A DNA stretch of 64,000 nt from an uncultured Helicobacteraceae bacterium (lineage in GTDB: Bacteria > Campylobacterota > Campylobacteria > Campylobacterales > SZUA-545). The position numbers were made by a program, and so were the translations under genes. How positions within the stretch are numbered: position 1 is the first letter of the stretch; each line of letters opens with the position of its first letter. The stretch lies in assembly GCA_963542625.1 (NCBI GenBank), contig CAUTXO010000001.1:3068-67067 (forward strand). Direction: 5' to 3'. The notes under the pieces were generated by a model. The model ran no database searches. It saw nothing but the letters and a program-made list of their open reading frames with translations, and was not told the DNA's origin. Of the stretch, positions 7,010 to 46,989 are shown in pieces.

Positions 7010-7017
7010 GGTAAGGC

Positions 7018-26767: not shown

Positions 26768-27508
26768 TTAAATCATATTCACGTTTAGGTCACTGGGGCT
26801 ATCAATCTCCACCCAGCCGCCGTCGATAAAAACGGGATAAACATCGCCAAAGCGATTGATGAGAAGCTGAAGAAAGCTCGTCATATACATATTTTCAAAG
26901 CTCTGGCCGTCAAAACTCGCGCGCCTATCAAGGCCATCGTAAAACTCCACCACACGTGCAAGCGCTACGCGGCGAATTTTAATAAGCCCGATGTATTGCC
27001 CCTGCACCTCATCAAGCGAGGCGGGCTTTTTGCCAAGCTCTATTATCTTGCCGCCTGAAATTTTCATCGTTTCTGCGTCGCTAAGCGGGTCTTGCATACG
27101 CGCGCGCCAAAGGGCAAGCCAAGATCTATCCACCACCACGCTCACATCGTGCGGCGCGGCAATGAGCGCCTGCAAAACCTCTGGGCGGTAGGCTATGTCC
27201 GTGTAAGAAATAATCAAGTCGTCCGTGTCAAAAAATTCGCGCGCGCAAAAAAGCGTGGCGACCATATTGCTTGACGCAAACGCCTTGTTTTCAAAAAATT
27301 CCACGCCGCCGCACCCCTGCAAATGCGCCCTTAGCACGTCAAATTTGTAGCCGCCAACGACGGCGATTTTATCCACCAAGGGCCCCGCTAAATCTAGCGC
27401 GCGGTCAATGAGCGGCTTGCCCTGATACGCCACCATACATTTGGGCTTGTCTAAAGTGAGCGGGCGCAAGCGTTTGCCCTGCCCTGCTGCTAGCAAAATA
27501 AGCTTCAC
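26768..27508 (-). CDS. Nucleotidyltransferase (Cj1416-like; candidate CTP:phosphoglutamine cytidylyltransferase)
   Basis: MKLILLAAGQGKRLRPLTLDKPKCMV NTP-transferase signature. GTG start in a GTGA overlap with the upstream gene. Synteny with the MeOPN cassette. Confidence 0.8.
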   Translation of the reverse strand: MKLILLAAGQGKRLRPLTLDKPKCMVAYQGKPLIDRALDLAGPLVDKIAVVGGYKFDVLRAHLQGCGGVEFFENKAFASSNMVATLFCAREFFDTDDLIISYTDIAYRPEVLQALIAAPHDVSVVVDRSWLALWRARMQDPLSDAETMKISGGKIIELGKKPASLDEVQGQYIGLIKIRRVALARVVEFYDGLDRRASFDGQSFENMYMTSFLQLLINRFGDVYPVFIDGGWVEIDSPSDLNVNMI

Positions 27509-28140
27509 GTATCGCCTTTAAAAAAATGTTTGATTAGGTTCATTTGCGCTTGACAAAAGGGCTCGTCGCGCTCGGTGTGCCAGTTTTGCGCAAAGATCCT
27601 AAGGCTTTTGTGCTCTATAGCTTTGATAACGCCCACGCTGTTTGTGGCGCTTGCGATTAGCTCGCTAGCCAAAGCTTCTATGCGGTAGTTGTGGTAAGAA
27701 TTGACGTCTCGTATGGCACTAAGATCTGCGGCGTATTTTGACGCGCCATTAACGCGCAAGCTGTGGCGCACGCGGACTTCGCCAGCCACTTTGGCAAAGC
27801 TGCTGCCAAAAAATTCGGCTACAAGCTGCATTCCGCGGCAAATGCCAAAAATGGGCAAGGCGTTTTTGATGGCAAAATCTAGCAAGGATCTTTCGTATTC
27901 ATCGCGCATTTTAGATAGCGGATCTTGCGGACTATTGACGCTAAGGTCGTTCCCGCCGCTAAGAAGCACGCCAGCTAGCCCCAAATCTGCAGCGTAGCAC
28001 GCGGGGTCTAGCTCGTATGGCAAAAGCACAGGCGTAAAACCAAGCGCGGCGATGAGCTTTGGCAAGCGAAGATCTAGGCAAGATCTTAGCTCGCCGTGCG
28101 CGGGATCTGTGGCTAGGCGTAAAGTTATGCCGATTTTCAC
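27505..28140 (-). CDS. Class-I glutamine amidotransferase / peptidase C26-like hydrolase (Cj1417-like)
   Basis: GGNDL...FGICRGMQL nucleophile elbow and a downstream H..E region. The preferred start is GTG at 28140 (GTGA overlap with the upstream stop). The longest ORF starts at 28170. Confidence 0.8.
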   Translation of the reverse strand: MKIGITLRLATDPAHGELRSCLDLRLPKLIAALGFTPVLLPYELDPACYAADLGLAGVLLSGGNDLSVNSPQDPLSKMRDEYERSLLDFAIKNALPIFGICRGMQLVAEFFGSSFAKVAGEVRVRHSLRVNGASKYAADLSAIRDVNSYHNYRIEALASELIASATNSVGVIKAIEHKSLRIFAQNWHTERDEPFCQAQMNLIKHFFKGDT

Positions 28141-30461
28141 GCTAGAGCCTTTACGCGCGCCCTTAGGCAATCAAGCTCTATAAGCTCTGCGCGTGCAAGC
28201 TCGGCAAAAAGCGGCTCGCCGCAACCAATCGCCGCGGGCAAGCCAAGCTCGGCGCAACGCACCGCCATATGCGAATTTGCTCCGCCATAGCAAGTGATTA
28301 GCCCCGCGATGCCCTTGCCAAACAAAAAGTCATAGCCCGGGTCGGCGTTTTTTATGCAAACGATTTTGCCCGCTAGATCTTGCTCGTAAGGCTCGCCGCG
28401 GCTTGCCGTAACGCTTGCTAGCCCGATGAAATTTGCCTTGCCGCCGCCAATAAAAAACTCGTAAATATCGCTCTGCTGCGTGATTAAAGACGGCAGCTGC
28501 AAGGCTTTGGTGAATTCAAAGGCGTCTTTATTTTGCTTGATGTTTGTTAAAAATAAATTATCCAAATTGTCAAATTCTAGCGTGCTGTAAAGGTTTTTAA
28601 TAACGGCAAAGTCTAAAAACGCCAAGTCTTGCGCGCCGATGCCGCTTTTTGCGCCAAGATCCCCCAGCAAGGAGATTACTTGGCTTAGGTGGCGCGTGAA
28701 TAAAAATTTAGAATACTCGCGCGCTTCTATGGCGTCTTTTATGAATTTTACAAGCCCCGCCGCGCTTGTTTTTAAGCCGTTTTCTACGATCTGCGCGGAG
28801 ATTTTTTCTAGCTGAGCCTGACTAAACGCAAACTCTTTTGTGTCTTTAAACGCGCCCCCCCCCCCGCTGCTACGCGCGCCGAAATATCTATCGTAGTCCT
28901 CGTCGTATCGTGGCGATGTGATGTCGTAAGTGTTGGGGCGCAAATGCCCGTAAAGCTTTAGGAATTCGCCCTTTTCTAGGCGCGCAAAGTCTTTATTCAT
29001 CGTCTTAGAAACGGTGTTTATGCTAGCCAAAAACTCCGCGCGCTCTGGTTCGCTCATAATCCCCTCACTCACAAAAGAATTGAGAATTTGCGTGGCAATA
29101 AACGCCGCGCGCGCCAGCCCCGCAAAGGCTAGCGTGCCATAGCGCTTGCAATCTTCTGTGAGCCAATAAATCGTATCAATAAGCGGCAGCCCAGCATTCA
29201 TCACCGATGAAAATTTTTCATCTAGCAAGGCGATTTTCTCAAGGTCGCGCTGAAAATGCCCGCTCGGGGCTAAAATGCTATTGGTTAGATCCAAAAGCGC
29301 AAACTCAATGCGCTTGATTTCATTGGCGCTAAAGCCTTTGGATCTTAGCCTTTCTAAGCGCCCCGAAATGCCGAAAAAATAGCAAGAAAAGACAATCTCA
29401 AACTCGACCTTATCGTGCAAATGCGCGTTTTGCGCCAGCTCGTCCAGATAATATTCAACGAGTTTTTCGGCAATGTTTTCGTGCAAATTCTTTGGCAAAA
29501 AGGAGTTAAACGAAACGCGCACGTCAATGTATGGAATGCCAAAAAAGCTCACAAGCAGCGGAAACGAGCGCAAATTTCTGTAGCCATAATTGTCGCGCTG
29601 ATACGCCCAAATTTCATCCGTGATGAATTCTTTGTAAAGGCTAAGCGCTAGTTTTTTAGGCCTTAGCCCGATGATTTCAGCGGGGTTCCAATCAGGCATA
29701 ACGCCAAAAATGCTCCTTTTGCCAAGCAATTTTGGGTGGGGGCTGCTTAGTTTTTCGATTTTTTTAGAAAGCTTAGATAGCGCTAGATCTAGGTTCAGCG
29801 CGCTTTTGCCACTAGAATGCGTAAATGCAAGCGGCCTAGCTTGCAAGATAAACACCCGCTCATCGCAAACGGCAAACTCAATGTCAAGGGCGGGATTATC
29901 TAAAACGCTTTCAAGCTCGCGCGCGGCGTCTAAGATCCGCGCTAGATCTTTAGCGGCTGGCCTGTGATCTTTATAGCAAACAAAGGTCTTAAGATCTGCC
30001 TTGCCGCCTGCTGTAACGCTTGTTGTATCGCCGTTTTGTGAGTAATTGACGGTGTAATACGGCGCGCCAGAGGCGCTGAGTGTAAAAATCACGCCGCTAG
30101 CGCCAACGCCACTAAGCATTTCTTGCACAAAAACTTCATCTTGCGCGCAAGGGTTTTTATACGATGCAAAAACGCGCTCGATTGCCGCCTTAAGATCCGC
30201 CGCATTTGGCGCAACGTTTAAAACGCTCTCAAACGCCCCCGCGTTGCTAAAATGCTCTGCGTCTTCATTCACAGACGATGAGCGCACAATAAGCGGAGCG
30301 GAAAACTTTGCCAGCACCGCGCCCACAATGCCTGCCGCGTCTTTTTGAAAATCCGCGTAAGAAAACACGGCAAGCTCTAGCACGGCGGATTTTTTCAGGC
30401 GCCCTTGTAAAAATAAAAGAGTTTGTGCTTTGGAGCGGGTCATACTTTTTTTGCCATCCAC
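28137..30461 (-). CDS. PEP-utilising-enzyme family kinase (Cj1418-like; candidate L-glutamine kinase)
   Basis: 774 aa. An N-terminal PPDK_N/ATP-grasp-like region and a C-terminal phosphohistidine swivel domain (ITCYGGANSHMAVRCAELGLPAAIG). An alternative ATG at 30443 gives an ATGA overlap with the upstream stop. Confidence 0.8.
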   Translation of the reverse strand: MDGKKSMTRSKAQTLLFLQGRLKKSAVLELAVFSYADFQKDAAGIVGAVLAKFSAPLIVRSSSVNEDAEHFSNAGAFESVLNVAPNAADLKAAIERVFASYKNPCAQDEVFVQEMLSGVGASGVIFTLSASGAPYYTVNYSQNGDTTSVTAGGKADLKTFVCYKDHRPAAKDLARILDAARELESVLDNPALDIEFAVCDERVFILQARPLAFTHSSGKSALNLDLALSKLSKKIEKLSSPHPKLLGKRSIFGVMPDWNPAEIIGLRPKKLALSLYKEFITDEIWAYQRDNYGYRNLRSFPLLVSFFGIPYIDVRVSFNSFLPKNLHENIAEKLVEYYLDELAQNAHLHDKVEFEIVFSCYFFGISGRLERLRSKGFSANEIKRIEFALLDLTNSILAPSGHFQRDLEKIALLDEKFSSVMNAGLPLIDTIYWLTEDCKRYGTLAFAGLARAAFIATQILNSFVSEGIMSEPERAEFLASINTVSKTMNKDFARLEKGEFLKLYGHLRPNTYDITSPRYDEDYDRYFGARSSGGGGAFKDTKEFAFSQAQLEKISAQIVENGLKTSAAGLVKFIKDAIEAREYSKFLFTRHLSQVISLLGDLGAKSGIGAQDLAFLDFAVIKNLYSTLEFDNLDNLFLTNIKQNKDAFEFTKALQLPSLITQQSDIYEFFIGGGKANFIGLASVTASRGEPYEQDLAGKIVCIKNADPGYDFLFGKGIAGLITCYGGANSHMAVRCAELGLPAAIGCGEPLFAELARAELIELDCLRARVKALA
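28855..28865 (-). repeat. Poly-G(11) homopolymer inside the glutamine-kinase-like gene
   Basis: Run of 11 C on the + strand. It encodes GGGG in ...RSSGGGGAFKD and is in frame (ON) here. Confidence 0.95.
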
Positions 30462-31267
30462 ATTCTCGTTGTGTATTTGATGTCAAACTCAAGCGGCAAC
30501 GAATGCTCTAGTTTGTAGGCGATCTTGCCAAAAAGCGCTCTGCCTTCTTCGGTGCTAAGATCCCAGTATGGGTTTTTCACGCTCTGCCAGGCTTTGATGT
30601 AATTCTCCCTGCTTTGGCGGAAGTAAAAATCCTGCTCTATAAAGCAAATCTCATCAAAAAGCGCGCGCTGCGTTAGCAAAAATGGCTTTTGATCTTCGCG
30701 CCTAACGCCGCCTGAATAGTTTGGCAATAAGTCCTTGATGACTTCTTGCGCCGTTTCTTGGATTGGGTCGTCAAGATCCCTGTGATTCCACATACAAGCA
30801 AAGCAGCCGCGGGGCTTTAAGATCCTAGCCGTTTCTTTAAGCGCTAGCTCTCTATCTACCACGTTAAAGCTGCTGCCAAAGGTTACAAGATCAAAGCTAG
30901 CATCATCTAGCGTGGTTTCTGTTGCGCCCGCTTTATACCAGGTGGCGTCTTTGCCCTTTGTTCTTTCTATGCCGATTTCTCTCATTGCGTCGTTTGGCTC
31001 AACGGCGCTAACCTTCAAGCCCCGCTCTAGGAGCATAAGCGTTAGGTTTGCCGTGCCAGCGCCTAGATCTGCGGCAACGCCGCGCGGTTTTTCTTGTGCG
31101 CCGTTTTGCGCCCCGCCTTTGCCGCCAAACGCCCATTCGCAAAGCAAGTCTATTGCCTTTGGGCTGTAATTTGGGCGGTAGGTGTAAAACGCCGCGTGCT
31201 TAGTGTAGTTCCATTCTGTTTTGTAGAGCGTGGATTGCCCCCCCCCCCGCTGCTGTAAATTTTTCAT
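30440..31267 (-). CDS. Class I SAM-dependent methyltransferase (Cj1419/Cj1420-like)
   Basis: ADLGAGTANLTLML SAM motif I and FDLVTFGSSFNV motif. Poly-G tract at codons 7-10. Confidence 0.8.
   Translation of the reverse strand: MKNLQQRGGGQSTLYKTEWNYTKHAAFYTYRPNYSPKAIDLLCEWAFGGKGGAQNGAQEKPRGVAADLGAGTANLTLMLLERGLKVSAVEPNDAMREIGIERTKGKDATWYKAGATETTLDDASFDLVTFGSSFNVVDRELALKETARILKPRGCFACMWNHRDLDDPIQETAQEVIKDLLPNYSGGVRREDQKPFLLTQRALFDEICFIEQDFYFRQSRENYIKAWQSVKNPYWDLSTEEGRALFGKIAYKLEHSLPLEFDIKYTTRMWMAKKV
31238..31248 (-). repeat. Poly-G(11) homopolymer at codons 7-10 of the methyltransferase gene
   Basis: Run of 11 C on the + strand. It encodes MKNLQQRGGGQ and is in frame (ON). Confidence 0.95.
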
Positions 31268-31270: not shown

Positions 31271-32035
31271 TCATATCCTTTGCGCCGTCCACGCTCTGAT
31301 TTTATACGGGACGGAAATTATGTCAAGTCCTGAGATCTTGCCTTCTATCATCGCCAAAACTTCCTCCCATTTGTCTCCCGCTTGCGCTTGAATGTCATTG
31401 ACGCTTTTCCACGCGCCGATGTAGCGCTCGCGGCTCATATGCTCGGTGTAGTCAATCTCTGCAAAAAAGCAATTCTTAAAATGCCCGCTGCTCTCAATGA
31501 CCGCCGTCCAGTCCTTGGTGTTTTGCGCCCCGCTTGAAACGCGCTTTAGATCTGGCAGCATTGCGCGGATCTGCTCTTCTATCTCATAAAACACCGTCCC
31601 TTCTTGCAAGTTGCGCGGATTCCACATCGCCGTGAATGAGCCGCCAGGCTTTAAGATCCGCCTAAACTCAGCAAGCGCCGCGGGCGCGTCCGTCCAGTGG
31701 AATGAGCTTGCCATTATCACCCAGTCGTAAGACCCTGCTTCTAGCCCCGTGCTCTCAGCGCTTGCCTTATGCCACGCTGCCTTAGTGTTTTTCGTGTATT
31801 CCACGCCCTCGCTTCGCATTGCGTCGTTTGGCTCAACGGCGGTAACAGCTAGCCCAATATTGCAAAGCATTTTTGTGAGCTTGCCCGTGCCCGCACCAAC
31901 TTCTGCGACCGCAAAATCTCCCCTTGCCGCGCCCCGCTCATTCACGCACAAAAAGAGCTTTTCTAATAGCACACTGCTATACGCGGGGCGGTTGTGGTAG
32001 TCCTTTGCCACCTGTGTAAAATCGCCTTGTTTCAC
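31271..32035 (-). CDS. Class I SAM-dependent methyltransferase (Cj1419/Cj1420-like)
   Basis: AEVGAGTGKLTKML motif I and YDWVIMASSFHW. Paralogous to the neighbouring methyltransferase. GTGA overlap with the upstream gene. Confidence 0.8.
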   Translation of the reverse strand: MKQGDFTQVAKDYHNRPAYSSVLLEKLFLCVNERGAARGDFAVAEVGAGTGKLTKMLCNIGLAVTAVEPNDAMRSEGVEYTKNTKAAWHKASAESTGLEAGSYDWVIMASSFHWTDAPAALAEFRRILKPGGSFTAMWNPRNLQEGTVFYEIEEQIRAMLPDLKRVSSGAQNTKDWTAVIESSGHFKNCFFAEIDYTEHMSRERYIGAWKSVNDIQAQAGDKWEEVLAMIEGKISGLDIISVPYKIRAWTAQRI

Positions 32036-32553
32036 TGTTCTCCTATCAATTTAAGAATTTGCGCCGCCTTTAGATCTAGGGCGTCTTGCCTTGTGTTGTC
32101 TATTTTTAAGTGGCAGTTTTTTGGCATATCAAAAGCTAAATCCATTCCAACGACGTTTTTTACGCCGCCATTTGCCCCGCTAGAAAAGCCGCTGTATAGC
32201 CCCTTTTGGTCGCGCCGTTTGAGCTCATCAAGGGAGCATTCTATAAAGATCTCGTAATACTCACGGACGTTTTTGCGGTTTTGCTCGAAGATCTCGCCAT
32301 AAAGAGACATCGTGGCGCAAACGACGTTAATATCCTGCCCGACCAAAAACGCGCACATAGCCGAGATCCGCCTAGCGTTTAAGAGCCTATCGGCGGGCGT
32401 GTGGCCTAGGTCGTTACCCAAAATGGCGCGGAAGGAGTCGCCGTCTAAAAATACTGTGTTTGGGTGGCGCTTTTTTAGGCGCGCAAAAACTTCTTTGCCG
32501 ATGGTGGTTTTGCCGCTACCGCTTAGCCCTGTGATCCAAATGAGTTTAGCCAT
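32032..32553 (-). CDS. APS-kinase-fold kinase (CysC/Cj1415-like; candidate cytidine diphosphoramidate 3'-kinase)
   Basis: MAKLIWITGLSGSGKTTIGKEV P-loop at the chosen ATG (32553), then FLDGD..R. The longer ORF to 32775 only adds repeat-encoded low-complexity sequence. Confidence 0.85.
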   Translation of the reverse strand: MAKLIWITGLSGSGKTTIGKEVFARLKKRHPNTVFLDGDSFRAILGNDLGHTPADRLLNARRISAMCAFLVGQDINVVCATMSLYGEIFEQNRKNVREYYEIFIECSLDELKRRDQKGLYSGFSSGANGGVKNVVGMDLAFDMPKNCHLKIDNTRQDALDLKAAQILKLIGEQ

Positions 32554-33922
32554 TTTTACCGCTTTGTGCTGGTGTGCGCGTTTGCGCTGGGGCGCTAGAT
32601 CTTGTGCTAGATCTTGCGGCGTTAGATCCAGCAAAGTTAGCACCAGCACCCATAAATCCTGCGGCGTCTTGCGCGGTTTGTTCGCCTTGCGCTTCTTGCG
32701 CGCCGTTAGATCCCGCGTTAGATCTCGCGCCACTGGATCTGCCATTTGCTGCGCGGATCTCATCACGCAAGGCAAGCACGCTTTCTACCACCGCGCATTT
32801 TTTGGCTTTGTAACGCAAAATAAACACGATGTTTTTCACAAAGCGCCTAAAAATAATCATCGGCTTTAACACCCCTAAGCGCTCTAAAAACCTAAGCACC
32901 GGCACGGTTAAAAGATGCGAATACTCGTAAGAATAATGAAACGAAAGCAAGTTTAATAAATTCACGCGTGAGTCGCCTAAAAGCTCTGCGCGGCAAATGG
33001 CGCTTTGGCTCATATCCGCCTTGGTGCAAAGCTTGTAGCCAGCGGCAAGATAAAGCGGCGCAAACATAGTCTCAAAGGCAAGCTGTTCTTCTTGGCTTAG
33101 GGCATCGTAAGTGATTTCTTTTTGCACTTCAAGCATCAGGTCTCCTTTAGCAGATTCATACTCCCAAGCCTTACCCATAAAGGTAGCCTTTAGCAAAGAT
33201 GGCGTAAATTCCAAGCCGACACGCTCGCAAAGATCTTTCATACAAACGTCTGGATCCATATGCAAATCTTCTAACCTAAGCGTGATGTAATTAGCAAGAT
33301 CCTTATGCAAAAAGTAATTTTTCATCCCGAATTTATACGCTTCTAATAAGCCCAAAACATAATTTACAGCCGTATTTTTTAACTTTTGCTTTAGCCTGAT
33401 GTGAGAAACGATGGCATTACTCATATCCCTAAACATATGCACGATAAAAACGTTTTTAAAGATAGCCTCTCGTTCTTTTAAGTAGAGCTCGCTCGGGTTT
33501 GAATGAATGTGCTCTACTATGTGCGTTACGTTTGTAAAATTAAAGCAAGCGGCAATAGCTGCGTAAAAACTTTCTATGTAATTTTTAACGGATCTTTGCC
33601 TAGCCGCTGCTGGAATAAAAACGTCCTTAAACTTCTGCGTATCAAAACTTAAGGTGTTTTTGCTGTAAAAAAAGTTATTTGCCGTGCTGAATTTATTCAC
33701 GTAAGGGTCTCTAAAAAAGCTCTCGCAAAGCATATCAAGCGACAAATCCATACGCGATGAAAAAAACTCATAACTATCAAAAAAACCGCTTGGCACAAAG
33801 GCAACGTTTTTATGCCCGTCTAGCATACTTTGAAGCAAGCTAGATCCGCTCCTGCTATGCACGTAAATATAGATGATTGTAAGATGTTCTAAACTTTTCA
33901 TTTTATCTGCAATAAATTCCAA
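32546..33922 (-). CDS. Sulfotransferase-fold protein (candidate phosphoramidate transferase) with low-complexity C-terminal tail
   Basis: IYVHSRSGSSLLQSMLDGH resembles the 5'-phosphosulfate-binding loop of bacterial sulfotransferases. An alternative ATG at 33901 gives an ATGA overlap. The last 70 aa or so are A/S/G/Q-rich. It overlaps the kinase start by 8 nt. Confidence 0.6.
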   Translation of the reverse strand: MEFIADKMKSLEHLTIIYIYVHSRSGSSLLQSMLDGHKNVAFVPSGFFDSYEFFSSRMDLSLDMLCESFFRDPYVNKFSTANNFFYSKNTLSFDTQKFKDVFIPAAARQRSVKNYIESFYAAIAACFNFTNVTHIVEHIHSNPSELYLKEREAIFKNVFIVHMFRDMSNAIVSHIRLKQKLKNTAVNYVLGLLEAYKFGMKNYFLHKDLANYITLRLEDLHMDPDVCMKDLCERVGLEFTPSLLKATFMGKAWEYESAKGDLMLEVQKEITYDALSQEEQLAFETMFAPLYLAAGYKLCTKADMSQSAICRAELLGDSRVNLLNLLSFHYSYEYSHLLTVPVLRFLERLGVLKPMIIFRRFVKNIVFILRYKAKKCAVVESVLALRDEIRAANGRSSGARSNAGSNGAQEAQGEQTAQDAAGFMGAGANFAGSNAARSSTRSSAPAQTRTPAQSGKNG

Positions 33923-35532
33923 AAGATGTATTCGTAATTTGCCCGCGCGCGCATATGATCTTCAAACATTTTCCAAATGCCCTTTTTGTTAAAGCGCTCA
34001 TCTAGGGATCCTATGCGCTCACTTAAGAGTTCTTTTAACTCGTTTCTAAACCAAGCGCCAAGCGGGACGCTAAAGCCCCTTTTTGGCCTAGCTGTTAGAT
34101 CTTGCGGGATTAGCCCCTTTAAAAGCTCGCGCAATAAAAATTTGTTTGCGCGCAAATAAAAGGGCAAAGAGTTTGCAAATTCCACAAAACGGCTATCCAA
34201 AAAAGGCGCAACGGCATCTAGCCCATAATAATAAGACGCACCAAAGGACTTCACAAAAACATCGCCTGTTAAATAATGCCTTTTATCAAGGGCGTTTAGG
34301 CTTTGTTCAATGTTACGTGGATCTAAGGGTGCGCGCTCTCCCAAAAGCTCATAAAACCCAAGACGCCTACCTTGCAAAAAATCCGCGCTAAAGACTTTTG
34401 AAAGATCCCAGGGCTTAAGAGCGCCAAAAACGGACGCGTAGATATTTTCAAGGCTTGGATTTTTCACAAAAAACGCGGCTTTTTTAAGCCTTTGCACGTT
34501 TGAATATTCAAATGCCAAGCCAAGCAAAGATCTAAGCGCACTAGGAATTGGGCGCAAAATCCTATACGCGCGCCTTGTGAATTGGTAGCGTTTATAGCCA
34601 AAAAAAAGCTCGTCCGCGCCATCGCCACCTAAAGCCACCTTAACGTGCTTGGCGGTTTCTTTGCAAAGTAGCATAAAAGCAAGGCTTGAAGTATCGCCAA
34701 AGGGCTCGTAATACGCCTTGCCAAAATCTTGCATCAGCGCCAAAACATCTTTTGCGCTAAAGATGAATTCAAAATGTTCGGTTTGCAAATATTTGGATGT
34801 TTGCGCAGCAAAGGGTGCTTCGTTATATGCGCGCTCTTTAAAAGCCACCGTAAATGTTTTTAGCTTTGATGTTTTTTTAGCAGCAATGGCGGCTAAAGCC
34901 GAGCTATCCACGCCCCCGCTTAAAAAAACGCCGATGTCTTCTTTTGGCGCTGGCAAACAAAGATCCAAAAGGCGCCTTGCTTCTTCTAGGGCTTCCTTTA
35001 GATTGTAGTTTTTTGCATCTTGCACGCTAGCGTAATAGATCTTTGGCGCTTCTAATTTTTTGCAAAATTCCAAATACATACCGCCGTAAAGCTTTTTTAC
35101 ACCGTCAAAATAGCAAGTGCCAAATGGGTAAAAGCCAAAGCTAACGAATTTAATCAGCACGTCTTGATTTGCGTTTTTTAAAAAATTTTCAGGTAGCAAA
35201 TCCGCCCTTAGCGCAAAGGCAAATTCGCCACCACCATAGGCGTAATACAAGGGCTTGCTACCGATTTTATCTTGCATAAGGTATAGCTTGCCAGCGGTTT
35301 TATCAAACAGCACAATTATAAATGTGCCGTAAAGTTTGTTTAAGATCCTAGCCGCGCCTAGCTTTCGCAATTCTTGCAAAAACTCTTCAGCGGTTTTTGC
35401 CTTGCTAAGATCTAGCGGTTCAAAAGTAGCGCCGTATATTGAGCCGTAAAAGCTAAGCTCAAAGTCTGCGCCTAAAATGTTATTGCCAAGATCTCCCGTA
35501 ATCTTTACGCCGTTTGCCGTGGTTAGGTTCAT
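33898..35532 (-). CDS. Asparagine-synthase-family amidoligase lacking the N-terminal Cys nucleophile
   Basis: PP-loop FLSGGVDSSALAAIA is present. The N-terminus MNLTTANG... has no Cys2, whereas the two paralogues start MCGI. Confidence 0.8.
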   Translation of the reverse strand: MNLTTANGVKITGDLGNNILGADFELSFYGSIYGATFEPLDLSKAKTAEEFLQELRKLGAARILNKLYGTFIIVLFDKTAGKLYLMQDKIGSKPLYYAYGGGEFAFALRADLLPENFLKNANQDVLIKFVSFGFYPFGTCYFDGVKKLYGGMYLEFCKKLEAPKIYYASVQDAKNYNLKEALEEARRLLDLCLPAPKEDIGVFLSGGVDSSALAAIAAKKTSKLKTFTVAFKERAYNEAPFAAQTSKYLQTEHFEFIFSAKDVLALMQDFGKAYYEPFGDTSSLAFMLLCKETAKHVKVALGGDGADELFFGYKRYQFTRRAYRILRPIPSALRSLLGLAFEYSNVQRLKKAAFFVKNPSLENIYASVFGALKPWDLSKVFSADFLQGRRLGFYELLGERAPLDPRNIEQSLNALDKRHYLTGDVFVKSFGASYYYGLDAVAPFLDSRFVEFANSLPFYLRANKFLLRELLKGLIPQDLTARPKRGFSVPLGAWFRNELKELLSERIGSLDERFNKKGIWKMFEDHMRARANYEYIFWNLLQIK

Positions 35533-36668: not shown

Positions 36669-37713
36669 TAATTTCCTTTACTATTTTTTCACACGCTCTG
36701 CCGTCGCCGTATAGGGGCTTAACCGGCTTTGAAACGCTTTTTATTTTTAGATAAGCATTTATCATACTATTGCCCCCCCCCCCGACCAGAACATTTGCGC
36801 CTTCATCTACTAGCTCGCTCCATTCTGTTTCATCTCTTGCAACAACGCAACGCTTACCAAAAAAATACGCTTCCTTTTGCAAACCGCCACTATCGGTTAT
36901 GGCAACTGAGCAATGCAAAAGCAGCCAGATCATCTCCAAATAGCCAACTGGATCTGTGACGCAAATATCGCCGGTAGAAATTCCAAAAGCATCAAGCGCG
37001 CCTTTTGTGCGTGGGTGGAGCGGCAAAACCACTTGCTCGTGCTTTGCAATTTCACGCAAGCCGCTAAAAATACTTTCAAGACGCGCTTTATCGTCCGTGT
37101 TTTCTGCTCTGTGAATGGTAGCAAGCACAAAGTTTGAGCTAAGATCTAGCCCCGGGCGCCTTGCTTTTTCTTTGTAATACAGGGCGCCGTCAAACATCAC
37201 ATCGCCACTATTTACAACGCGCACGCCAAAATTTCCAAAGCCCTCACGCTCTAAATTTTGCACGGCAAGATCCGTAGGGCAAAACAAAAACGCGCTTAGT
37301 CTGTCGGTTAAGATCCTGTTTATTTCTTCTGGCATTTTCATATTAAAACTACGCAAGCCCGCTTCAATATGCGCGATTTTTATATGCAACTTAGCAGCAG
37401 TAAGCGCCGCGGCTAGCGTTGAGTTTGTGTCGCCATAAACTAGCACAAGATCTGGTGATAGCTCTAGCATAACGCTCTCTAGCGCTTCCATCATTTTTGC
37501 CGTTTGCGCCGCGTGGGAATTTGCCCTGATGTTTAGCTTAAAGTGCGGTTTTGGAATGTCTAGCTCGTCAAAAAATATATCGCTCATATTAAGATCATAG
37601 TGCTGACCGGTATGGATTATAAACTCTTGTATCTCGGTGTTTTTTAGCGCCCGGCTAAAGCTTGCCGCCTTTATAAATTGCGGCCTGGCGCCTAAAACGG
37701 TTGCTATCTTCAT
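36649..37713 (-). CDS. wecB: UDP-N-acetylglucosamine 2-epimerase (non-hydrolysing type)
   Basis: MKIATVLGARPQFIKAA..., HTGQHYD, VLVYGDTNSTLA, HIEAGLRSFN, TDSGGLQKEA signature blocks. Confidence 0.9.
   Translation of the reverse strand: MKIATVLGARPQFIKAASFSRALKNTEIQEFIIHTGQHYDLNMSDIFFDELDIPKPHFKLNIRANSHAAQTAKMMEALESVMLELSPDLVLVYGDTNSTLAAALTAAKLHIKIAHIEAGLRSFNMKMPEEINRILTDRLSAFLFCPTDLAVQNLEREGFGNFGVRVVNSGDVMFDGALYYKEKARRPGLDLSSNFVLATIHRAENTDDKARLESIFSGLREIAKHEQVVLPLHPRTKGALDAFGISTGDICVTDPVGYLEMIWLLLHCSVAITDSGGLQKEAYFFGKRCVVARDETEWSELVDEGANVLVGGGGNSMINAYLKIKSVSKPVKPLYGDGRACEKIVKEIIESSAH
36773..36783 (-). repeat. Poly-G(11) homopolymer near the 3' end of wecB
   Basis: Run of 11 C on the + strand. 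It encodes VGGGGNS and lies about 105 nt upstream of the overlapping glycosyltransferase start. Confidence 0.95.
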
Positions 37714-39524
37714 TCTATGCCGCCAAAAACTTCAAGCCATTTTGCGTAGGCAATCACTCTCCAAAACTTACCGCTGTAAGCTTGCTTGCCGCTTATAAAC
37801 GCATCAAAATCGCTCAAGATCTTTTCATTTATATACTTGCTTTTTTGCGCCGCCAAAGCTAGCTCGTCCCGCAAAAAAACGTGATGCTTTTTAAACCAAA
37901 GCGCTTCAGGCGTTGCAAAACCTATCTTATCTTTTCTAGATGAAATGATTGCCGGCAAGATCTTAGCCAAAGCTTCACGCAAGATCCGTTTAGTTTGCCC
38001 ACGGTGAATTTTACGCGTTTTATCAGCACAAAGCAAAAACTCCACCAAGCGATAATCCAAAAACGGCAACCTAGATTCAACGGACGAAAACATAGAATTC
38101 CTATCTTCATAGTGCAAAAGCGCCGGTAGGTTGGTGTGGAAGATCTGCGCTAGGGACATTTTGGCTAGGTTACTGCTGCGCTCTCCATAATCTATATACG
38201 GGAATTTAACGTCTATGTTTTTAAATAAATCCGTATTTAGCCACGCGCTCTTTGCGGGCTTAACTAGCTTTTTTATAAACGCCGGCAGTGTGTAAAACAG
38301 CGCCCTGGCAATCAAATAAAACTTTGAAATACCGTGCATCTTGCTAAGGGCTGCTACTTCTTTTGTAAATAAGCCAAACTGAAACTTCACCAAGCATTCC
38401 GACAAAAACGAGTAAAAATATTCATTGTAGCCGCCTAAGATCTCATCGGCACCCTGACCGTCTAGCATAACCTTTATGCCAAGATCTTTCGCCCTTTCAA
38501 ACACGCAAAATTGCGCAAAAATGGACGTTGAAGCATAGGGAACATCTTGCGCGTATATGGTTTTTTTCAAAAAATCCGCATCAAGGAGCCTATCTAGATC
38601 TGGGTAGATCTTATGGCTTGCGATGTTTTTTTGGCTTGCCACACCATCTATAAACAAGCTCTCGTCTATGTTTTTATCCGCGTAGCAAGCGCTAACACAG
38701 TCTAGGCGCTTATCGCTCAAAACATCATCTGCCATAGAAACAATGGACGAGCTATCAAGCCCACCAGATAGACAAGATCCAACACTCACATCCGCCCTAA
38801 GCCGCAAAGAAACAGCGGATCTAAAAAGCTCCAAAAAGTCTGCGGATCTAGTCTGCGGCTCATACCACTTGCTGATACTATAAGAATTAGCTTGCAAGTC
38901 GTAAAGTAGCTTTTCGCCCGCGCACAGCTGCTTTATGGATCTAAAGAATGTATTTTGATTGTAGTCTATCAGCGCGTTTTGCAAAAAGTTATACACAGCT
39001 TCTTCATCAACGCACGCGTCAAAGTTTTCAAGGGCTACAAACTGCTTAATCTCCGAGCCAAACACAAAAAAATCACCTATTTTTGAGTAGTAAAAAGGCT
39101 TAACGCCAAACCTATCCCTAGCGCAAAAAACGGTTTTTTGTAGTTTGTCGTAAATGGCAAAAGCCCACATACCGTTTAAGCGCCATAAGCAATCTTGCCC
39201 AAAGAAATCATAGGCTGCTAAAATAACTTCCGTATCGCCAGCGGTTGTGAAGGCATAGCCCTTATCTAAAAGCTCTTGTTTTAATTCTTGGAAGTTGTAG
39301 ATCTCGCCGTTATATACAATCGTGTAGCGCTCCAAATAAGACATAGGCTGATTAGAACAAGCCCCAAGATCTACGATAGAAAGCCTGCGATGCCCAAGCG
39401 CCACGCCATCATCTACAAAAACACCCGAAGAATCTGGCCCCCTGTGCTTGACGGCGTCAAGCATAAGCGGCAAGTAGCCCTTTGGTATAGGCTTATTAGC
39501 TAGTATGCCTGCTATGCCACACAT
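37710..39524 (-). CDS. Asparagine synthase (glutamine-hydrolysing) family amidotransferase
   Basis: MCGIAG Ntn nucleophile, HRRLSIVD and PP-loop CLSGGLDSSSIVSMA. Confidence 0.85.
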   Translation of the reverse strand: MCGIAGILANKPIPKGYLPLMLDAVKHRGPDSSGVFVDDGVALGHRRLSIVDLGACSNQPMSYLERYTIVYNGEIYNFQELKQELLDKGYAFTTAGDTEVILAAYDFFGQDCLWRLNGMWAFAIYDKLQKTVFCARDRFGVKPFYYSKIGDFFVFGSEIKQFVALENFDACVDEEAVYNFLQNALIDYNQNTFFRSIKQLCAGEKLLYDLQANSYSISKWYEPQTRSADFLELFRSAVSLRLRADVSVGSCLSGGLDSSSIVSMADDVLSDKRLDCVSACYADKNIDESLFIDGVASQKNIASHKIYPDLDRLLDADFLKKTIYAQDVPYASTSIFAQFCVFERAKDLGIKVMLDGQGADEILGGYNEYFYSFLSECLVKFQFGLFTKEVAALSKMHGISKFYLIARALFYTLPAFIKKLVKPAKSAWLNTDLFKNIDVKFPYIDYGERSSNLAKMSLAQIFHTNLPALLHYEDRNSMFSSVESRLPFLDYRLVEFLLCADKTRKIHRGQTKRILREALAKILPAIISSRKDKIGFATPEALWFKKHHVFLRDELALAAQKSKYINEKILSDFDAFISGKQAYSGKFWRVIAYAKWLEVFGGIE

Positions 39525-41294: not shown

Positions 41295-42336
41295 GCCTTA
41301 GCGAGCTTCTAAAATCTTTCATTTTTTTACCATTCCAAATACTTCCAAAACTTTCTTTCATAATATTTCCCATCACGATATGAAAACAGCGCGTCATAAT
41401 AATCACATCACCGTTAGCCATAAACTGCGCCTGCTCCCAAGGGACGCGACAGTGATCCCTTGAAAATATTTTTTTAGGATCCGTAAAATACATTTTTGCA
41501 TCTTCAGCACTATTAAAATAAGGAGTTTGTATAAGATGAACCCCCCCCCCTTGCTTAATAATTTTTGCCGCTTTCTGAAGATTTTCATACATCAGATCAT
41601 AATCAATTGTTTCAGGGAAAATCGAGCTAATGCACGTTGGTGTGGCGCGCGCTATATCGCCAAAGTATTTGTTGTGTGTATTTGCCATATCCTGCGTAAC
41701 AAAATTCAAATGAGAAAACGCAACTTGCGTTGGGTGGATCTTAATAACTTCACGCGCAAAATCTTCCAAATGCAAGTAATTCCAATCCGACACAACGTGA
41801 TTTATCAGCCTTTCTTTTATGCCAAGATCCTTAGCCCTTAAAAAACCTTCAACGGCATTGGCGTAAGATTTGCCACCCCCGCCTCTTATTTTGTCGTGAA
41901 TCTCTGCTGTGCCGTCTAAAGAGATAGAAAGCGTATCAAGCCCGGCTGAAGCTAGGTCGTCTATTTTTTTAGGAAGCAAAAGCCCGTTTGTACCAACTTG
42001 CGTTTTGCAACCCTTTTTCTTGGCGTATTCAATTGCCGCTGGCAAATGCTTCCAAAGCAAGGGCTCGGTAGAAATAATGGCAATCACCGGGCGCACGGGG
42101 GCTAGCTCATCCACAATGCGCTTAAAAACTTCAAGCGGCATATCCATATTCGCCGAAAGCATGTTAAGCGTAAATTGTGTATCCGTTTGGTTTTGCCCCA
42201 CATCGCACATCTTGCAAAACAAGTTACAACGCGAATTGACTATTATATAAACCATCTTAGGCCACAAAGCGCTACTGCCTAAAAGGTGGCGGTTTATCTT
42301 TAGCCTAACGTATGGCACTAAATTTTTTAATTGCAT
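41248..42336 (-). CDS. Radical SAM enzyme with C-terminal Cys-rich (SPASM/twitch-like) region
   Basis: IVNSRCNLFCKMCDV CX3CX2C motif and C-terminal Cys residues (DHCRVPW...TRCF...PACTRCCG). The preferred ATG at 42336 (MQLKNLV...) overlaps the upstream stop (TGATG). The longest ORF extends to 42381. Confidence 0.8.
   Translation of the reverse strand: MQLKNLVPYVRLKINRHLLGSSALWPKMVYIIVNSRCNLFCKMCDVGQNQTDTQFTLNMLSANMDMPLEVFKRIVDELAPVRPVIAIISTEPLLWKHLPAAIEYAKKKGCKTQVGTNGLLLPKKIDDLASAGLDTLSISLDGTAEIHDKIRGGGGKSYANAVEGFLRAKDLGIKERLINHVVSDWNYLHLEDFAREVIKIHPTQVAFSHLNFVTQDMANTHNKYFGDIARATPTCISSIFPETIDYDLMYENLQKAAKIIKQGGGVHLIQTPYFNSAEDAKMYFTDPKKIFSRDHCRVPWEQAQFMANGDVIIMTRCFHIVMGNIMKESFGSIWNGKKMKDFRSSLRRVGMFPACTRCCGVL
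41541..41550 (-). repeat. Poly-G(10) homopolymer in the radical SAM gene
   Basis: Run of 10 C on the + strand. It encodes KQGGGVH. Confidence 0.95.
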
Positions 42337-43508
42337 CAGGCAAGCTCTTTTTTCAAAATAACAAAATCGCCGTCTTTCCACTGCGTGCCATTAAAAGATC
42401 CGTTAACAATAAGCTCAAAACTATCCCTTAAATACCCCGCCATACTTTCCGTGCTGTGCTTTTTGTAGACAAGATCTTGCGCCGCTGCTGCAACGCCTTC
42501 GTAATCTTTTATATTGCGTAATAGATCTTTAATCTGCCTTATTGGATCCCCAAGATCTAGCTCCACATAATGCACGTTTTCTTTAAAGCCCATATCAGAA
42601 AATCCATAAGGCGCCACACAAAGCAAAAGCGATTTGTTAGCCGGGATCTCAAAAAACTTCCTAATAGCGGTTTTGTATTGGCTACCATCGGTAAAGGAGA
42701 TCTTAGACGTCGCCAAATGCTCTTCAAAAATAAAGTTATAAAGCTTCATCGTTACGATGTTTGAATACGGCTTAAGCCCCAACCTATTAAAAAGCGAATA
42801 CGCAAAGTTATGGATCCTGCGCGGCATAGTGATCTCTTTTGCTTGCTTAACCTGCTCTCTTAACGCCCGGCGCTGATAATAAAGCACGCCCTCTACGGAA
42901 AAATCGTATTTTCTGTGCTCTAGGCAAGAGTATCTAAATTCACTAGGTGCAATGGTATGGTAAAAAGAAATTGTCCTGTGCTTATACCTATTTACAAACT
43001 CGTAATAATCGTCATTTAAAAGCCCTACGTGCTTTTCTTTGTCTATGCCGGGGAGATCTTTCATCGCAACTAAATATTGCGTCCCCATACCTATATAATA
43101 AGCGCCCTGTTCTTCGTAGGCCTTCATAATGTACGTCGGAAAATTGTGAAAGTCAAACATTTCCTTAAAGACGAGGTTTGTATTTTTCAAAGACGCTATA
43201 TCCCTAGCAATAGCCGGCAAATAATAAATGTGTTCTATTGGGTAGTGAATAAACCTATATTTTCTGTATTCGTTTAGGTATTTTGCGTTGATTGGTTGGG
43301 TGGAAAAATACGGAAAGCAAATATCATCAACGACAATATCAAAGCCACCGTGCCTTTCTATGTAAGCGTTCAAGCCCTCTTTTAGCGTTTTTTCATCGGA
43401 AAACCCTGGTCCAAAAAAATAAGCGTTTAATTTTCTAAAGATGGTTAAATAGTTTCTATCTGTAGGGTTTAAATACTCATTGTAAGCACCGATGTAAAGT
43501 ATCCTCAC
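42336..43508 (-). CDS. Hypothetical protein, possibly a CgeB-like glycosyltransferase-family domain
   Basis: 390 aa. The C-terminal half (IRKFFEIPANKSLLLC...VHYVELD...IKDLL...) loosely resembles Glyco_trans_1_2/CgeB-type domains. GTGA overlap with the upstream stop. Confidence 0.45.
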   Translation of the reverse strand: MRILYIGAYNEYLNPTDRNYLTIFRKLNAYFFGPGFSDEKTLKEGLNAYIERHGGFDIVVDDICFPYFSTQPINAKYLNEYRKYRFIHYPIEHIYYLPAIARDIASLKNTNLVFKEMFDFHNFPTYIMKAYEEQGAYYIGMGTQYLVAMKDLPGIDKEKHVGLLNDDYYEFVNRYKHRTISFYHTIAPSEFRYSCLEHRKYDFSVEGVLYYQRRALREQVKQAKEITMPRRIHNFAYSLFNRLGLKPYSNIVTMKLYNFIFEEHLATSKISFTDGSQYKTAIRKFFEIPANKSLLLCVAPYGFSDMGFKENVHYVELDLGDPIRQIKDLLRNIKDYEGVAAAAQDLVYKKHSTESMAGYLRDSFELIVNGSFNGTQWKDGDFVILKKELA

Positions 43509-44176: not shown

Positions 44177-44694
44177 CTAAAAAGGCTCATAATCGCAAGA
44201 TCTCTAAGCTCGCCGTCTATAAAAGCGTGGCGCCTTAGCAAGCCCTCGCGCACAAAGCCAAGCCGCTCGTATAATCTCGCCGCGCGCGTATTAAAGTCAA
44301 AAACATACAGGTAAATTTTTTGCAAGTCTAGCGCGCCAAAGCCGTAAGAGATAAGCTTGCCTAAGGCGCGGCTGCCGTAGCCTTTGGACGTGTAGGCAAG
44401 ATCTATGCGCGCGCGTAGCTCGGCGGTTTTGCTTACAAGATCTATGCCGTATAGCCCACAAGATCCAATAAGCTCATCGCCCAAAAAAATGCCAAAAAAC
44501 ACCGTGCTTGCATCGCGCCTTAGGGCGTCAAACCACTCCGCGTGGCTTTTAAAATCCACCGGCTTATAGCGGGCGCTAAAGCGCACAAGGTCAGCGTCGT
44601 TAATAAGCTCAAAAAGCCGCGCAAGATCTTGTTCGCCCCGCACCGCGCCAAGCCTTAGTGCGCTTTGGTTGGCGCCGCTGCTTAGCGCTTCCAC
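44173..44694 (-). CDS. GNAT-family N-acetyltransferase
   Basis: About 170 aa. Acetyl-CoA-binding-type segment (YTSKGYGSRALGKLISYGF) and a C-terminal ...RLYERLGFVREG. Confidence 0.75.
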   Translation of the reverse strand: MEALSSGANQSALRLGAVRGEQDLARLFELINDADLVRFSARYKPVDFKSHAEWFDALRRDASTVFFGIFLGDELIGSCGLYGIDLVSKTAELRARIDLAYTSKGYGSRALGKLISYGFGALDLQKIYLYVFDFNTRAARLYERLGFVREGLLRRHAFIDGELRDLAIMSLFR

Positions 44695-45413
44695 GTGTCT
44701 TCCAAGCGGATCTTATAATCCGCGCGCGTGGCGGCGTATCTGTGATTTGGCGCAAACGCCGCGTCTAGCCCCGCTAAATACGAGCTAAGCATTTTGTTAA
44801 GCGGTTGTTCGTAGGTGTTGCCCCCCCCCCCGGAGAGATGAAACGGGTGGAAAAGCACCTGTATAAGCCTTGTGCGCGATGTTTGCAAAAAGCTTTCTGG
44901 GTCTTTGTTTCTGAAAGAAAAGCAAGAGTCGCTCATATAAATTTCATCGCTGAAAATCCGGCTGTCATACGCGCTAAGCAGCCCCGTGTTTTCCAAATAA
45001 ATATTATGAATACTGGGGCTGTGCATACTAAAAGACGCCACGCGCTCTTGCGTTAGATCTTCTAGCATTTGGCACTCTTTTTGTAAAAGCGCGGTTAGCT
45101 CAAGCGGATCTGCGGCGTTATAAACAAGCGGGTCAAAGTGCAAGCCAACCTCTGCGCGGCTTGCCATACGGCGCAAAAGCCCGCGTGAATGCGTGCTAAA
45201 GGCGTTGTAAAGTGGCGAGGTCAAAAGCACGTAATAAGTGGCGCGAATCCCAAGATCTACCTCACGCTCAAAGAGTTCGTAGGCAATATCTATGGACGCG
45301 TCTATGTCGTGGCGCAATAAGATCCCGTGCTTTAGGCTTTGAAAGTCTTTGATTTGGTGCGTTTCATACTTAGCGATTGTCTCTAAGTAGATCTCTTGTT
45401 TAAACATATTCAT
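44682..45413 (-). CDS. Polysaccharide-deacetylase-like protein (tentative)
   Basis: GILLRHDIDASIDIA...GIRATYYVL resembles the N-terminal metal-binding region of divergent CE4-like deacetylases found in O-antigen loci. Weak. Confidence 0.5.
   Translation of the reverse strand: MNMFKQEIYLETIAKYETHQIKDFQSLKHGILLRHDIDASIDIAYELFEREVDLGIRATYYVLLTSPLYNAFSTHSRGLLRRMASRAEVGLHFDPLVYNAADPLELTALLQKECQMLEDLTQERVASFSMHSPSIHNIYLENTGLLSAYDSRIFSDEIYMSDSCFSFRNKDPESFLQTSRTRLIQVLFHPFHLSGGGGNTYEQPLNKMLSSYLAGLDAAFAPNHRYAATRADYKIRLEDTWKR
44821..44831 (-). repeat. Poly-G(11) homopolymer in the deacetylase-like gene
   Basis: Run of 11 C on the + strand. It encodes LSGGGGNT. Confidence 0.95.
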
Positions 45414-45980: not shown

Positions 45981-46989
45981 TTTTATCTCCTTTTAGCTCC
46001 CCAAATGGTAGGACGTAAAAGCCTGAATATTCTTTCAAAAGCTCGTCTTTTGTGGCGTGCAAAACGTCCTTGTTTGCTAGGCTGATGAAGTATTTATACT
46101 CCCGCTGGCTTGCCGCAAATTTTTTCTTAAACCTATACACGCCGTCTTGGCCAAGCCACGTCCCGCCCCAATTCCACCATTCATAGCCAGCGCTTGCTGC
46201 CTTTTGCATTGCGGTAAAAATCACAAGCGGCAAGGCTTGAAGGCTTCTAAATTCTTCCACCACAGCTGGCGTGAAATACTCAACCGTTTTGTTGTAGTAA
46301 AAAACAAGCAAGGCCGCCACCGGCTCGCCGTTTAGATCTGCTGTAAAGATCTCGTAATCCGCTGTGGGCGTAAAAAACTCCGGCAAACGCGCAAAAAACT
46401 CCCGAGTTTTTGTCTGCCCACCAAGCTTTGAGATGTTTTGCTGGTGCGTTTGGTATAAAAAATCGCTAGCTGAATTATCCACCGCCACTCTCACGCCGGC
46501 GTTTTGCGCCTTTTTAATGTTGCGCCTTGCGCTTGCGTCAAGCCCTGCTAAGATCTCATCCGGCTTTGCAAGAGGCGTGAATTGCCCTATGCGCTTGTCC
46601 GTGTAGTCAAAGCGCGCAAGATCTTGCAAGGCGCTATCAAGCGGGTTTTGAATATACACGCTGCACGCCGCACGCGCGCTTAAGTCTTCGTAGTGCGCTT
46701 TTAACGCCTCAAAGGCTTGCTCGGCTTTGCTAAAGATCCCGCCGTTGCTGCCAAAATACGCAAGCGAATTAATCACGCGCCCGTATTTGCCACCCTTTGC
46801 CACAAGCGGCAAGGCGCCTTGTATCTCTCCGCCATCGTCTAGGGCTAGCGCATAAAGGCTTTGCGCGCCTAAAAATTCTTCCAAAAACCGCTTGTATTTC
46901 ACGCTATGGTAAAAAAGGCTGTGCGAAAACTCGTGCAAAAATCGCTCGTATCTTTCAAAAAGCGGCTCATCAAGCGTTACAATTTTCAT
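45958..46989 (-). CDS. FemAB-like / GNAT-fold aminoacyl- or acyl-transferase
   Basis: About 343 aa from the ATG at 46989 (ATGA overlap with the upstream stop). The C-terminal part (NGEPVAALLVFYYNKTVEYF...YRFKKKF) resembles FemAB/lipid II glycyltransferase-like families seen in EPS loci. Confidence 0.55.
   Translation of the reverse strand: MKIVTLDEPLFERYERFLHEFSHSLFYHSVKYKRFLEEFLGAQSLYALALDDGGEIQGALPLVAKGGKYGRVINSLAYFGSNGGIFSKAEQAFEALKAHYEDLSARAACSVYIQNPLDSALQDLARFDYTDKRIGQFTPLAKPDEILAGLDASARRNIKKAQNAGVRVAVDNSASDFLYQTHQQNISKLGGQTKTREFFARLPEFFTPTADYEIFTADLNGEPVAALLVFYYNKTVEYFTPAVVEEFRSLQALPLVIFTAMQKAASAGYEWWNWGGTWLGQDGVYRFKKKFAASQREYKYFISLANKDVLHATKDELLKEYSGFYVLPFGELKGDKNDEQQNN

Follow-up and report, generated by a model that had tools for sequence, protein, structure and literature searches.

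The 64,000-nucleotide (nt) stretch analyzed here (hereafter the window; positions 3,068 to 67,067 of contig CAUTXO010000001.1, from an uncultured Helicobacteraceae bacterium) carries a gene for a sulfotransferase-fold protein, a candidate phosphoramidate transferase, beside a cassette of genes that resemble those for phosphoramidate synthesis in Campylobacter jejuni. Unless stated otherwise, all window features described below lie on the minus strand. The gene was placed at 32546..33901 on the basis of Pfam, Foldseek, and the recorded protein. A mechanical open reading frame (ORF) of 458 amino acids (aa) that begins with a TTG (32546..33922), on which the original prediction was based, is present, but the start is likely the ATG at 33901 and not the TTG at 33922, giving a product of 451 aa. 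This ATG shares the nucleotides ATGA with the TGA of the upstream AsnB-like gene (33898-35532), and NCBI and ENA record a 451-aa protein with exactly this sequence (P0274). At the other end of the gene, the stop codon overlaps the start of the downstream kinase gene by 8 nt (ATGGCTAA; 32546..32553), as had been reported from the sequence, and the same overlap is shared by two related contigs (L081 1647/1654 and L082 10884/10891). To judge from the sequence, the overlap reads as translational coupling of the transferase and kinase genes.

Downstream on the same strand, the order of genes is a Cj1415-type kinase, two methyltransferases, and then Cj1418-, Cj1417-, and Cj1416-type genes. The kinase (32032..32553; 173 aa) has an adenosine 5'-phosphosulfate (APS) kinase fold (PF01583 at 1.1e-32; NF004041 at 186 bits against a cut-off of 127) and is predicted to be a cytidine diphosphate (CDP)-amidate 3'-kinase. 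Its identity to cassette-linked kinases is 40–49% (43% to that of C. jejuni 414), compared with 31% to an APS kinase linked to ATP sulfurylase (Sat), in agreement with the earlier assignment of this neighbor as the 3'-kinase of the cassette. The two methyltransferases, one Cj1420-like (31271..32035) and one Cj1419-like (30440..31267), both match Methyltransf_11 and, by eye and by position, resemble the two that adjoin the transferase gene of C. jejuni 414 (L029 8383-9156 and 9181-9969, respectively). A Cj1418-like L-glutamine kinase follows (28137..30461; NF004508 at 948 bits, with PPDK_N and PEP-utilizers domains), then a Cj1417-like gamma-glutamyl-CDP-amidate hydrolase (27505..28170; Peptidase_C26, and NF045546 at 3e-40 with a score of 138.4 bits that lies below the equivalog cut-off of 250), and finally a Cj1416-like cytidylyltransferase (26768..27508; NTP_transf_3). 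According to C. jejuni work cited in PMC11800397, enzymes of the Cj1415–Cj1418 type make CDP-phosphoramidate 3'-phosphate, termed 'the likely donor'. The original prediction had also placed the gene in the position held by the O-methyl phosphoramidate (MeOPN) transferases, and it does lie at the 5' flank of the cassette, like the Cj1421-type genes of Campylobacter loci (L074 and L020). Those genes stand directly upstream of the Cj1420/Cj1419/Cj1418 genes, whereas in the window the kinase gene stands between the transferase and methyltransferase genes.

The fold proposed for the protein was recovered both by profile comparison and by structure prediction. Pfam Sulfotransfer_3 (PF13469) matched residues 10-234 over profile positions 2-216 at 38.4 bits, above the gathering cut-off of 27, and a phmmer search of PDB sequences found the sulfotransferase domains of CurM and of an olefin synthase. 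The AlphaFold (AF2) model of the protein, with a predicted local distance difference test (pLDDT) score of 77.7, had 45 Foldseek matches in the PDB at E ≤ 1e-3, and the top 50 matches were all sulfotransferases that use 3'-phosphoadenosine 5'-phosphosulfate (PAPS), the best being TPST2 (1.6e-8) and the CurM sulfotransferase (4.9e-8). With the PAPS sulfotransferases of the Sulfotransfer_3/TPST/CurM clade (PDB 3ap3, 4gbm, and 4gox) the protein shares the overall fold, the 5'-phosphosulfate-binding loop, the 3'-phosphate-binding motif, and an LEDL strand-helix; it differs from them in an extra C-terminal amphipathic helix with a disordered tail and in a genomic context that supplies a cytidine phosphoramidate donor in place of PAPS.

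Two nucleotide-binding motifs are evident in the translation and in the alignment with CurM. The loop-like motif on which the original prediction rested (VHSRSGSSLLQSMLDGH, residues 14-30, 33812..33862) aligns with the PAPS 5'-phosphosulfate loop of CurM (PRSGSTLLRVMLAGH), with SRSGSSLL opposite PRSGSTLL in the phmmer alignment. A second motif, which had been missed, is the 3'-phosphate-binding motif FRDMSNAIVSH (residues 157-167, including R158 and S166; 33401..33433), of which FRDMSNAIVS stands opposite the CurM 3'-phosphate motif VRHPYSVIES. Among 52 aligned family members R158 is invariant and both G19, in the loop, and S166 are nearly invariant. These same features would suit an ordinary PAPS-dependent sulfotransferase that acts on the glycan of the upstream genes, the adjacency of the cassette being coincidental or the neighboring kinase also making PAPS. 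Such an enzyme would account for the Sulfotransfer_3 threshold being passed, for the canonical RSGS(S/T) and R...S motifs being kept, and for every structural neighbor being a PAPS enzyme, and a fairly close relative (P0007) adjoins ATP sulfurylase and APS kinase genes. We nonetheless consider it unlikely in view of the genes that surround the protein and its relatives.

The genomic context of the family argues for a different donor. A word-indexed homologue search returned two relatives only, and an exhaustive HMMER search with the protein gave 1721 matches, two of which were close. The contexts of the eight best distant homologues, each drawn from a different 50%-identity cluster, were examined. 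Five of these (P0006, P0008, P0009, P0011, and P0014) are located within or immediately next to complete phosphoramidate cassettes, defined by the kinase, methyltransferase, glutamine kinase, hydrolase, and cytidylyltransferase, and for P0014 both the gene order and the overlap with the kinase gene are the same as in the window. A sixth (P0004), on a short contig, adjoins the kinase and a methyltransferase, while P0012 is associated with neither a cassette nor ATP sulfurylase. P0007 is the sole member of the eight beside ATP sulfurylase and APS kinase, and this arrangement marks a true sulfation context. Context therefore separates two uses of the fold, with the window protein on the phosphoramidate side. 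Neither ATP sulfurylase nor CysDN was found on the cassette-linked homologue contigs or among the 38 long window ORFs that were scanned with Pfam and that cover most of the window, and the window kinase groups with the cassette kinases and not with the Sat-linked one, all of which counts against a supply of PAPS at this locus.

The strongest support for a phosphoramidate-transferase reading comes from comparative genomics. A search of species-representative genomes with the Cj1418 homologue of the window gave 225 confirmed relatives, and the best 80 loci (44–51% identity), most of them from Acidobacteriota, various Proteobacteria, Helicobacter, and Campylobacter, were analyzed. Together with the window these loci make up 81 sources, in which the families next to the cassette were counted through searches with family-specific profile hidden Markov models (HMMs); a first single-linkage clustering of the locus ORFs was dropped because it was polluted by high-GC shadow ORFs and by fusions. 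Nearly all loci contain the kinase, hydrolase, cytidylyltransferase, and methyltransferase together, the Cj1416-like cytidylyltransferase being present in 77 of the 81 sources. In 45 ORFs the glutamine kinase carries the Cj1415-type kinase as an N-terminal fusion (e.g., L066 9389-12313, L062 9374-12313, and L079 9350-12313, and also in L077 and L040), from which it follows that the kinase is committed to the amidate pathway, a further point against a role in making PAPS. In one locus (L006 8697-9983) a Cj1415-type kinase is instead fused to a methyltransferase.

The occupant of the slot that adjoins the cassette is almost always a member of one of three families, the pattern expected of alternative solutions to one function. 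Sulfotransfer_3-like proteins occupy it in 12 sources (median gap to the cassette gene of 4.5 nt), an unannotated domain of ~250 residues, here called cluster 4, in 33 sources (median gap of 69 nt), and Cj1421-type proteins in 12 sources (median gap of 16 nt, where the window gene has its 8-nt kinase overlap). Two families occur together in one locus only (L066), a single Cj1421-type ORF in L022 also scores weakly with the Sulfotransfer_3-like profile, and in 26 sources none of the three was found within the available DNA. Of the 80 loci, 33 have cluster 4 next to the cassette, most of them in Acidobacteriota (e.g., L071 15911-16897, minus strand; also L064, L070, L035, and about 30 other loci). 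There it holds the same cassette-side slot as the window protein, and in L019, L032, L056, and L066 it is fused into proteins of 650–1000 aa. As a family cluster 4 has no match to a Pfam or NCBIfam model, and its resemblance to the family of the window protein is limited to a local match of ~50–70 columns. Its motifs are a GLFGSGR loop, YRHPLDSLLTN, and an LRLEDF strand; six of its seven weak PDB matches are sulfotransferases, and one member matches Sulfotransfer_3 at 6e-4.

A further recurrent component of these loci is a cluster of CysQ-like ORFs (Inositol_P, PF00459, in the two members that were scanned with Pfam), which is found in 21 of the 80 loci and in L092 (e.g., L072 4527-5414, L014 17098-17946, L092 10516-11259, and, inside the operon, L006 12920-13666). 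Such a component would be expected were a 3',5'-bisphosphate nucleotide a by-product of the pathway, and the CysQ-like protein is plausibly a phosphatase for 3',5'-CDP. No CysQ was found among the 38 scanned window ORFs.

Whether the window protein is an orthologue of Cj1421/Cj1422 or a non-orthologous replacement had been left open; by its profile matches it is not an orthologue. Genetic evidence identifies Cj1421/Cj1422 and CJJ81176_1420/1435 as MeOPN transferases (PMC11800397 and PMC13317227), and loss of Cj1421/Cj1422 removes MeOPN from a specific sugar (genetics of McNally 2007, as cited in PMC11800397); the function predicted for the window protein is the same. Within NCBIfam, which holds a model for the 'O-methyl phosphoramidate transferase' (NF058596), the window protein has no match at E ≤ 0.1, where a control Cj1421-type protein (P0213) scores 774.8 bits with NF058596 against a cut-off of 600. 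Proteins of the Cj1421 type carry DUF2972 (PF11186) and PF28160, and a Pfam scan of the window protein showed neither. It also lacks the N-terminal helical domain of ~240 residues seen in Cj1421-type proteins, retains an RSGSS loop where those proteins have SAGVSGH or HGAG, and by eye has no poly-G tract of the kind considered for phase variation of Cj1421/Cj1422. The description that suits it best is that of a non-orthologous replacement. No Cj1421-type gene turned up when window ORFs of at least 100 aa were screened, so that within the 64 kb the cassette would otherwise be without a transferase.

A more remote relationship between the two families is suggested by structure. There was no significant pairwise or family-level sequence match between the window protein and the Cj1421 type: hhalign of the target family against full-length Cj1421-type proteins aligned 25 columns round the RDP motif at 7% probability, and a jackhmmer search from the Cj1421 core recruited neither the window protein nor other Sulfotransfer_3-like ORFs, which means that homology is not established by sequence alone. 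With richer profiles, hhalign of the Cj1421 core against the target family reached 67% probability (E of 5e-5 over 235 columns). An apparent bridging match, in which the HMM of the target family hit a Cj1421-type ORF of Helicobacter (L022, E of 2.6e-4), was set aside, as it covers the same short motif region. The AlphaFold model of P0213 (pLDDT 79.3) has as its best PDB matches the sulfotransferase domain of NDST1 and SULT7A1; the sulfotransferase matches have probabilities of 0.99–1.0 with E-values of 0.03–0.4, none of them significant, and adenylate kinases come next. In the central domain of this model a beta-loop-helix, an RDP...S/K motif, and the order of strands and helices run parallel to those of the window protein. 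The Cj1421 core is thus probably, on the strength of the model, a very divergent sulfotransferase-like domain.

The candidate transferase also bears a physical trace of its association with the cassette. In a related contig (L081) the DNA is 92% identical to the window from about 32903 into the kinase and methyltransferase genes, and upstream of ~32903 blastn detects no similarity between the two. The junction, placed approximately at residue ~334 by blastn of L081 against the window and by protein alignment, falls within the transferase gene itself: the L081 protein (P0002) is almost identical to the window protein from residue ~334 onward and yet has 43% identity to it over the trimmed alignment of the catalytic domain (~45% over the full length). 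By eye, the upstream neighbor in L081 resembles the C-terminus of a glycosyltransferase and not the AsnB-like gene. The boundary at which recombination separates the variable glycan genes from the conserved cassette thus lies inside the transferase gene, which would be expected were the acceptor read by the N-terminal domain and the 3' end of the gene part of the cassette. Together with the 8-nt overlap, this junction ties the transferase to the cassette and so stands against the adjacency being a coincidence, as do the five of eight nearest relatives in or beside a full cassette and the sixth next to the kinase and methyltransferase.

Beyond the catalytic domain, the model has a poorly modeled segment (residues 321-334), a long helix (residues 345-387), and a disordered tail (residues 390-451). 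The helix (32741..32869; AF2 pLDDT of about 80–89) is cationic and amphipathic, with a hydrophobic moment of 0.56–0.63 for residues 347-367 and 10 K/R against 3 D/E, and in the model it is possibly an element for membrane association. The tail (residues 384-451, 32549..32752; pLDDT <50 from residue 390) varies in length between alleles, with P0002 having a longer version with extra GS-rich units. The original description of a repeat-encoded A/S/G/Q-rich tail was right as to composition (87% A/S/G/Q/N/T/R), and the tail is predicted to be disordered, but 'repeat-encoded' was an overstatement; the DNA is weakly repetitive, with two 12-nt units of about 2 copies each detected by Tandem Repeats Finder. 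The same DNA is open in other frames, as a 74-codon 'extension' of the kinase ORF (32032-32775) and as a 185-aa ORF on the plus strand (32312-32869), both of which are probably artifacts of stop-poor repeat sequence. Counts of synonymous and non-synonymous changes in the tail (6/6 in two frames) do not tell the reading frames apart. An N-terminal extension of the kinase (ORF 32032-32775) was rejected, since the recorded kinase has 173 aa and its relatives begin at MxK(L/V)IWITG.

Taken together, these observations make it likely, as far as sequence can indicate, that the window gene encodes a non-orthologous, sulfotransferase-fold phosphoramidate transferase that uses a 3'-phospho-CDP-amidate, and the fold, the Cj1415-type kinase, and the downstream CDP-amidate pathway all support this part of the original prediction; every proposed computational test that was run favored it. 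By homology to the C. jejuni enzymes, the Cj1418-like kinase would phosphorylate the amide of glutamine, the Cj1416-like enzyme would convert the product to CDP-glutamine, the Cj1417-like enzyme would free the CDP-amidate, and the Cj1415-like kinase would add the 3'-phosphate. The resulting 3'-phospho-cytidine-5'-diphosphoramidate would be laid out like PAPS, as a 3'-phosphonucleoside 5'-phosphate with a transferable terminal group. In the proposed last step of the pathway, the 3'-phosphate-binding motif (R158 and S166) would grip the 3'-phosphate of this donor and the RSGSS loop its 5'-phosphate and terminal group, such that the terminal phosphoramidyl group could pass in-line to a hydroxyl of the surface glycan with 3',5'-CDP as the leaving product. 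O-methylation by the two methyltransferases would precede or follow transfer, acceptor specificity would be set by the variable N-terminal domain (about residues 1-333), and the amphipathic helix near the C-terminus, conserved and moving together with the cassette, would probably hold the enzyme at the membrane. That the 3'-phospho-CDP-amidate, or a derivative, is instead used on a non-glycan acceptor (e.g., Ser/Thr/Tyr of flagellin), or that the protein has a non-transferase role in nucleotide binding or hydrolysis, is quite improbable: although the best structural matches are tyrosylprotein sulfotransferases (TPSTs), the scanned ORFs of the locus include a single glycosyltransferase and no kps, wzx, or wzy genes, flagellar genes are nearby in the window, and the relative P0014 is part of a Maf-type flagellin-glycosylation locus, TPST and CurM are simply the nearest proteins of the Sulfotransfer_3 clade to have solved structures, changes in the variable N-terminal domain go along with changes of sugar-modifying neighbor, and the known phosphoramidate targets are sugars (PMC11800397).

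Several points weigh against assigning phosphoramidate transfer to this protein. The motifs are exactly those of PAPS-using enzymes, with no sign in the sequence that favors cytidine, or phosphoramidate over sulfate, and the context of P0007 shows true sulfotransferases to be among the members of the wider family. At the positions of the catalytic Glu/His pair of CurM the window protein has S38 and F40, so that the pair is not conserved; D42 and H30 are conserved candidates for the catalytic base. The sample of contexts is small, with eight top matches and two more (P0060 and P0120) that were uninformative because their contigs were too short. The E-values for homology between the Cj1421 core and sulfotransferases fall short of significance, and Cj1421-type or sulfate-activation genes could be present elsewhere in a genome of which 64 kb are visible. 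Finally, the gene is interrupted in a sister genome contig (L082, 98% DNA identity), where a frameshifted copy is annotated as two 'hypothetical protein' fragments. A single-base deletion at L082 ~9850-9860 (window ~33590), GGCAAAGATCC to GGCAAAGTCC, splits the gene into ORFs of 108 and 296 aa, and the gene may therefore be dispensable or a pseudogene, unless the deletion is an assembly error. Phase variation as in Cj1421/Cj1422 was considered and rejected, as inspection by eye shows no homopolymer tract of G or C in the gene (its longest homopolymer runs being T7) and the deleted base, a single A, is outside any homopolymer run.

The transfer of MeOPN onto sugars is the sole step of a virulence- and phage-receptor-related pathway without a biochemically characterized enzyme, and papers from 2025 still place the decoration step in future work (PMC11800397 and PMC12409886). 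In the literature searched, no link of the MeOPN transferases or of cassette-adjacent proteins to the sulfotransferase fold was found, though work on Cj1415 in subscription journals, which was outside the search, may discuss the PAPS analogy. A compact candidate with a canonical sulfotransferase fold offers a tractable protein and a testable mechanism, PAPS-like binding of the 3'-phospho-CDP-amidate, and the reading provides a reason for the addition of a 3'-phosphate in the pathway. It would pair a known fold with a group-transfer chemistry that is predicted to be new, in place of a known transferase family; if correct, the sulfotransferase fold gains a phosphoramidyl transfer activity, and some of the proteins labeled 'sulfotransferase' or 'hypothetical' beside glutamine-kinase cassettes are mis-assigned or unassigned. 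More tentatively, and with chances somewhat short of even, the whole phosphoramidate-decoration system could be an evolutionary copy of the PAPS/sulfotransferase system, with an APS-kinase-fold enzyme to make the donor, at least three divergent sulfotransferase-fold families (the Sulfotransfer_3-like proteins, cluster 4, and the Cj1421/Cj1422 core), CysQ-like clearance of 3',5'-CDP, and a wide distribution beyond Campylobacter in Acidobacteriota, Proteobacteria, and others. Were this the case, the 3'-phosphate added by Cj1415 would exist to fit the 3'-phosphate pocket of sulfotransferases.

Upstream of the candidate transferase is a 15-kb same-strand run of glycan-modifying genes, which includes three AsnB-like amidotransferases, GT4, UDP-GlcNAc 2-epimerase, a C5-epimerase-like gene, radical SAM (SPASM), WbqC, and a FemAB-like gene. 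The AsnB-like gene next to the transferase (33898..35532; Asn_synthase 9e-67) falls in the part of the locus that is variable and glycan-specific, and its paralogues are at 37710-39524 and 46986-48995. Two other ORFs of the glycan locus, at 42336-43508 (390 aa) and 44682-45413 (243 aa), have no Pfam match at E ≤ 1e-4.

The number of confirmed Cj1418 relatives in the species-representative collection (225) suggests that phosphoramidate decoration extends far beyond Campylobacter, the only source from which the modification was known in a 2019 review (PMC6429109). Among loci L001-L080, full cassettes with Cj1418-type glutamine kinases also occur in Bryobacterales, Steroidobacteraceae, Spirochaetaceae, Geobacter, and a metagenome-assembled genome of the Thermoplasmatales. 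In C. jejuni 414 (L029 6369-13684) the cassette is kinase-first, and the Cj1421-type gene that accompanies it is short, has no long N-terminal domain, and seems to be split, with a gap between ORF 6912-7769 and the methyltransferase. The neighbors of this cassette, by eye, resemble flgH and pta/ackA and not capsule genes. The gene for P0014 and its cassette (L094 1-1355 and neighbors) are found within a Maf-type flagellin-glycosylation and nonulosonic-acid locus, a context which hints that phosphoramidate may decorate flagellin glycans in some organisms.

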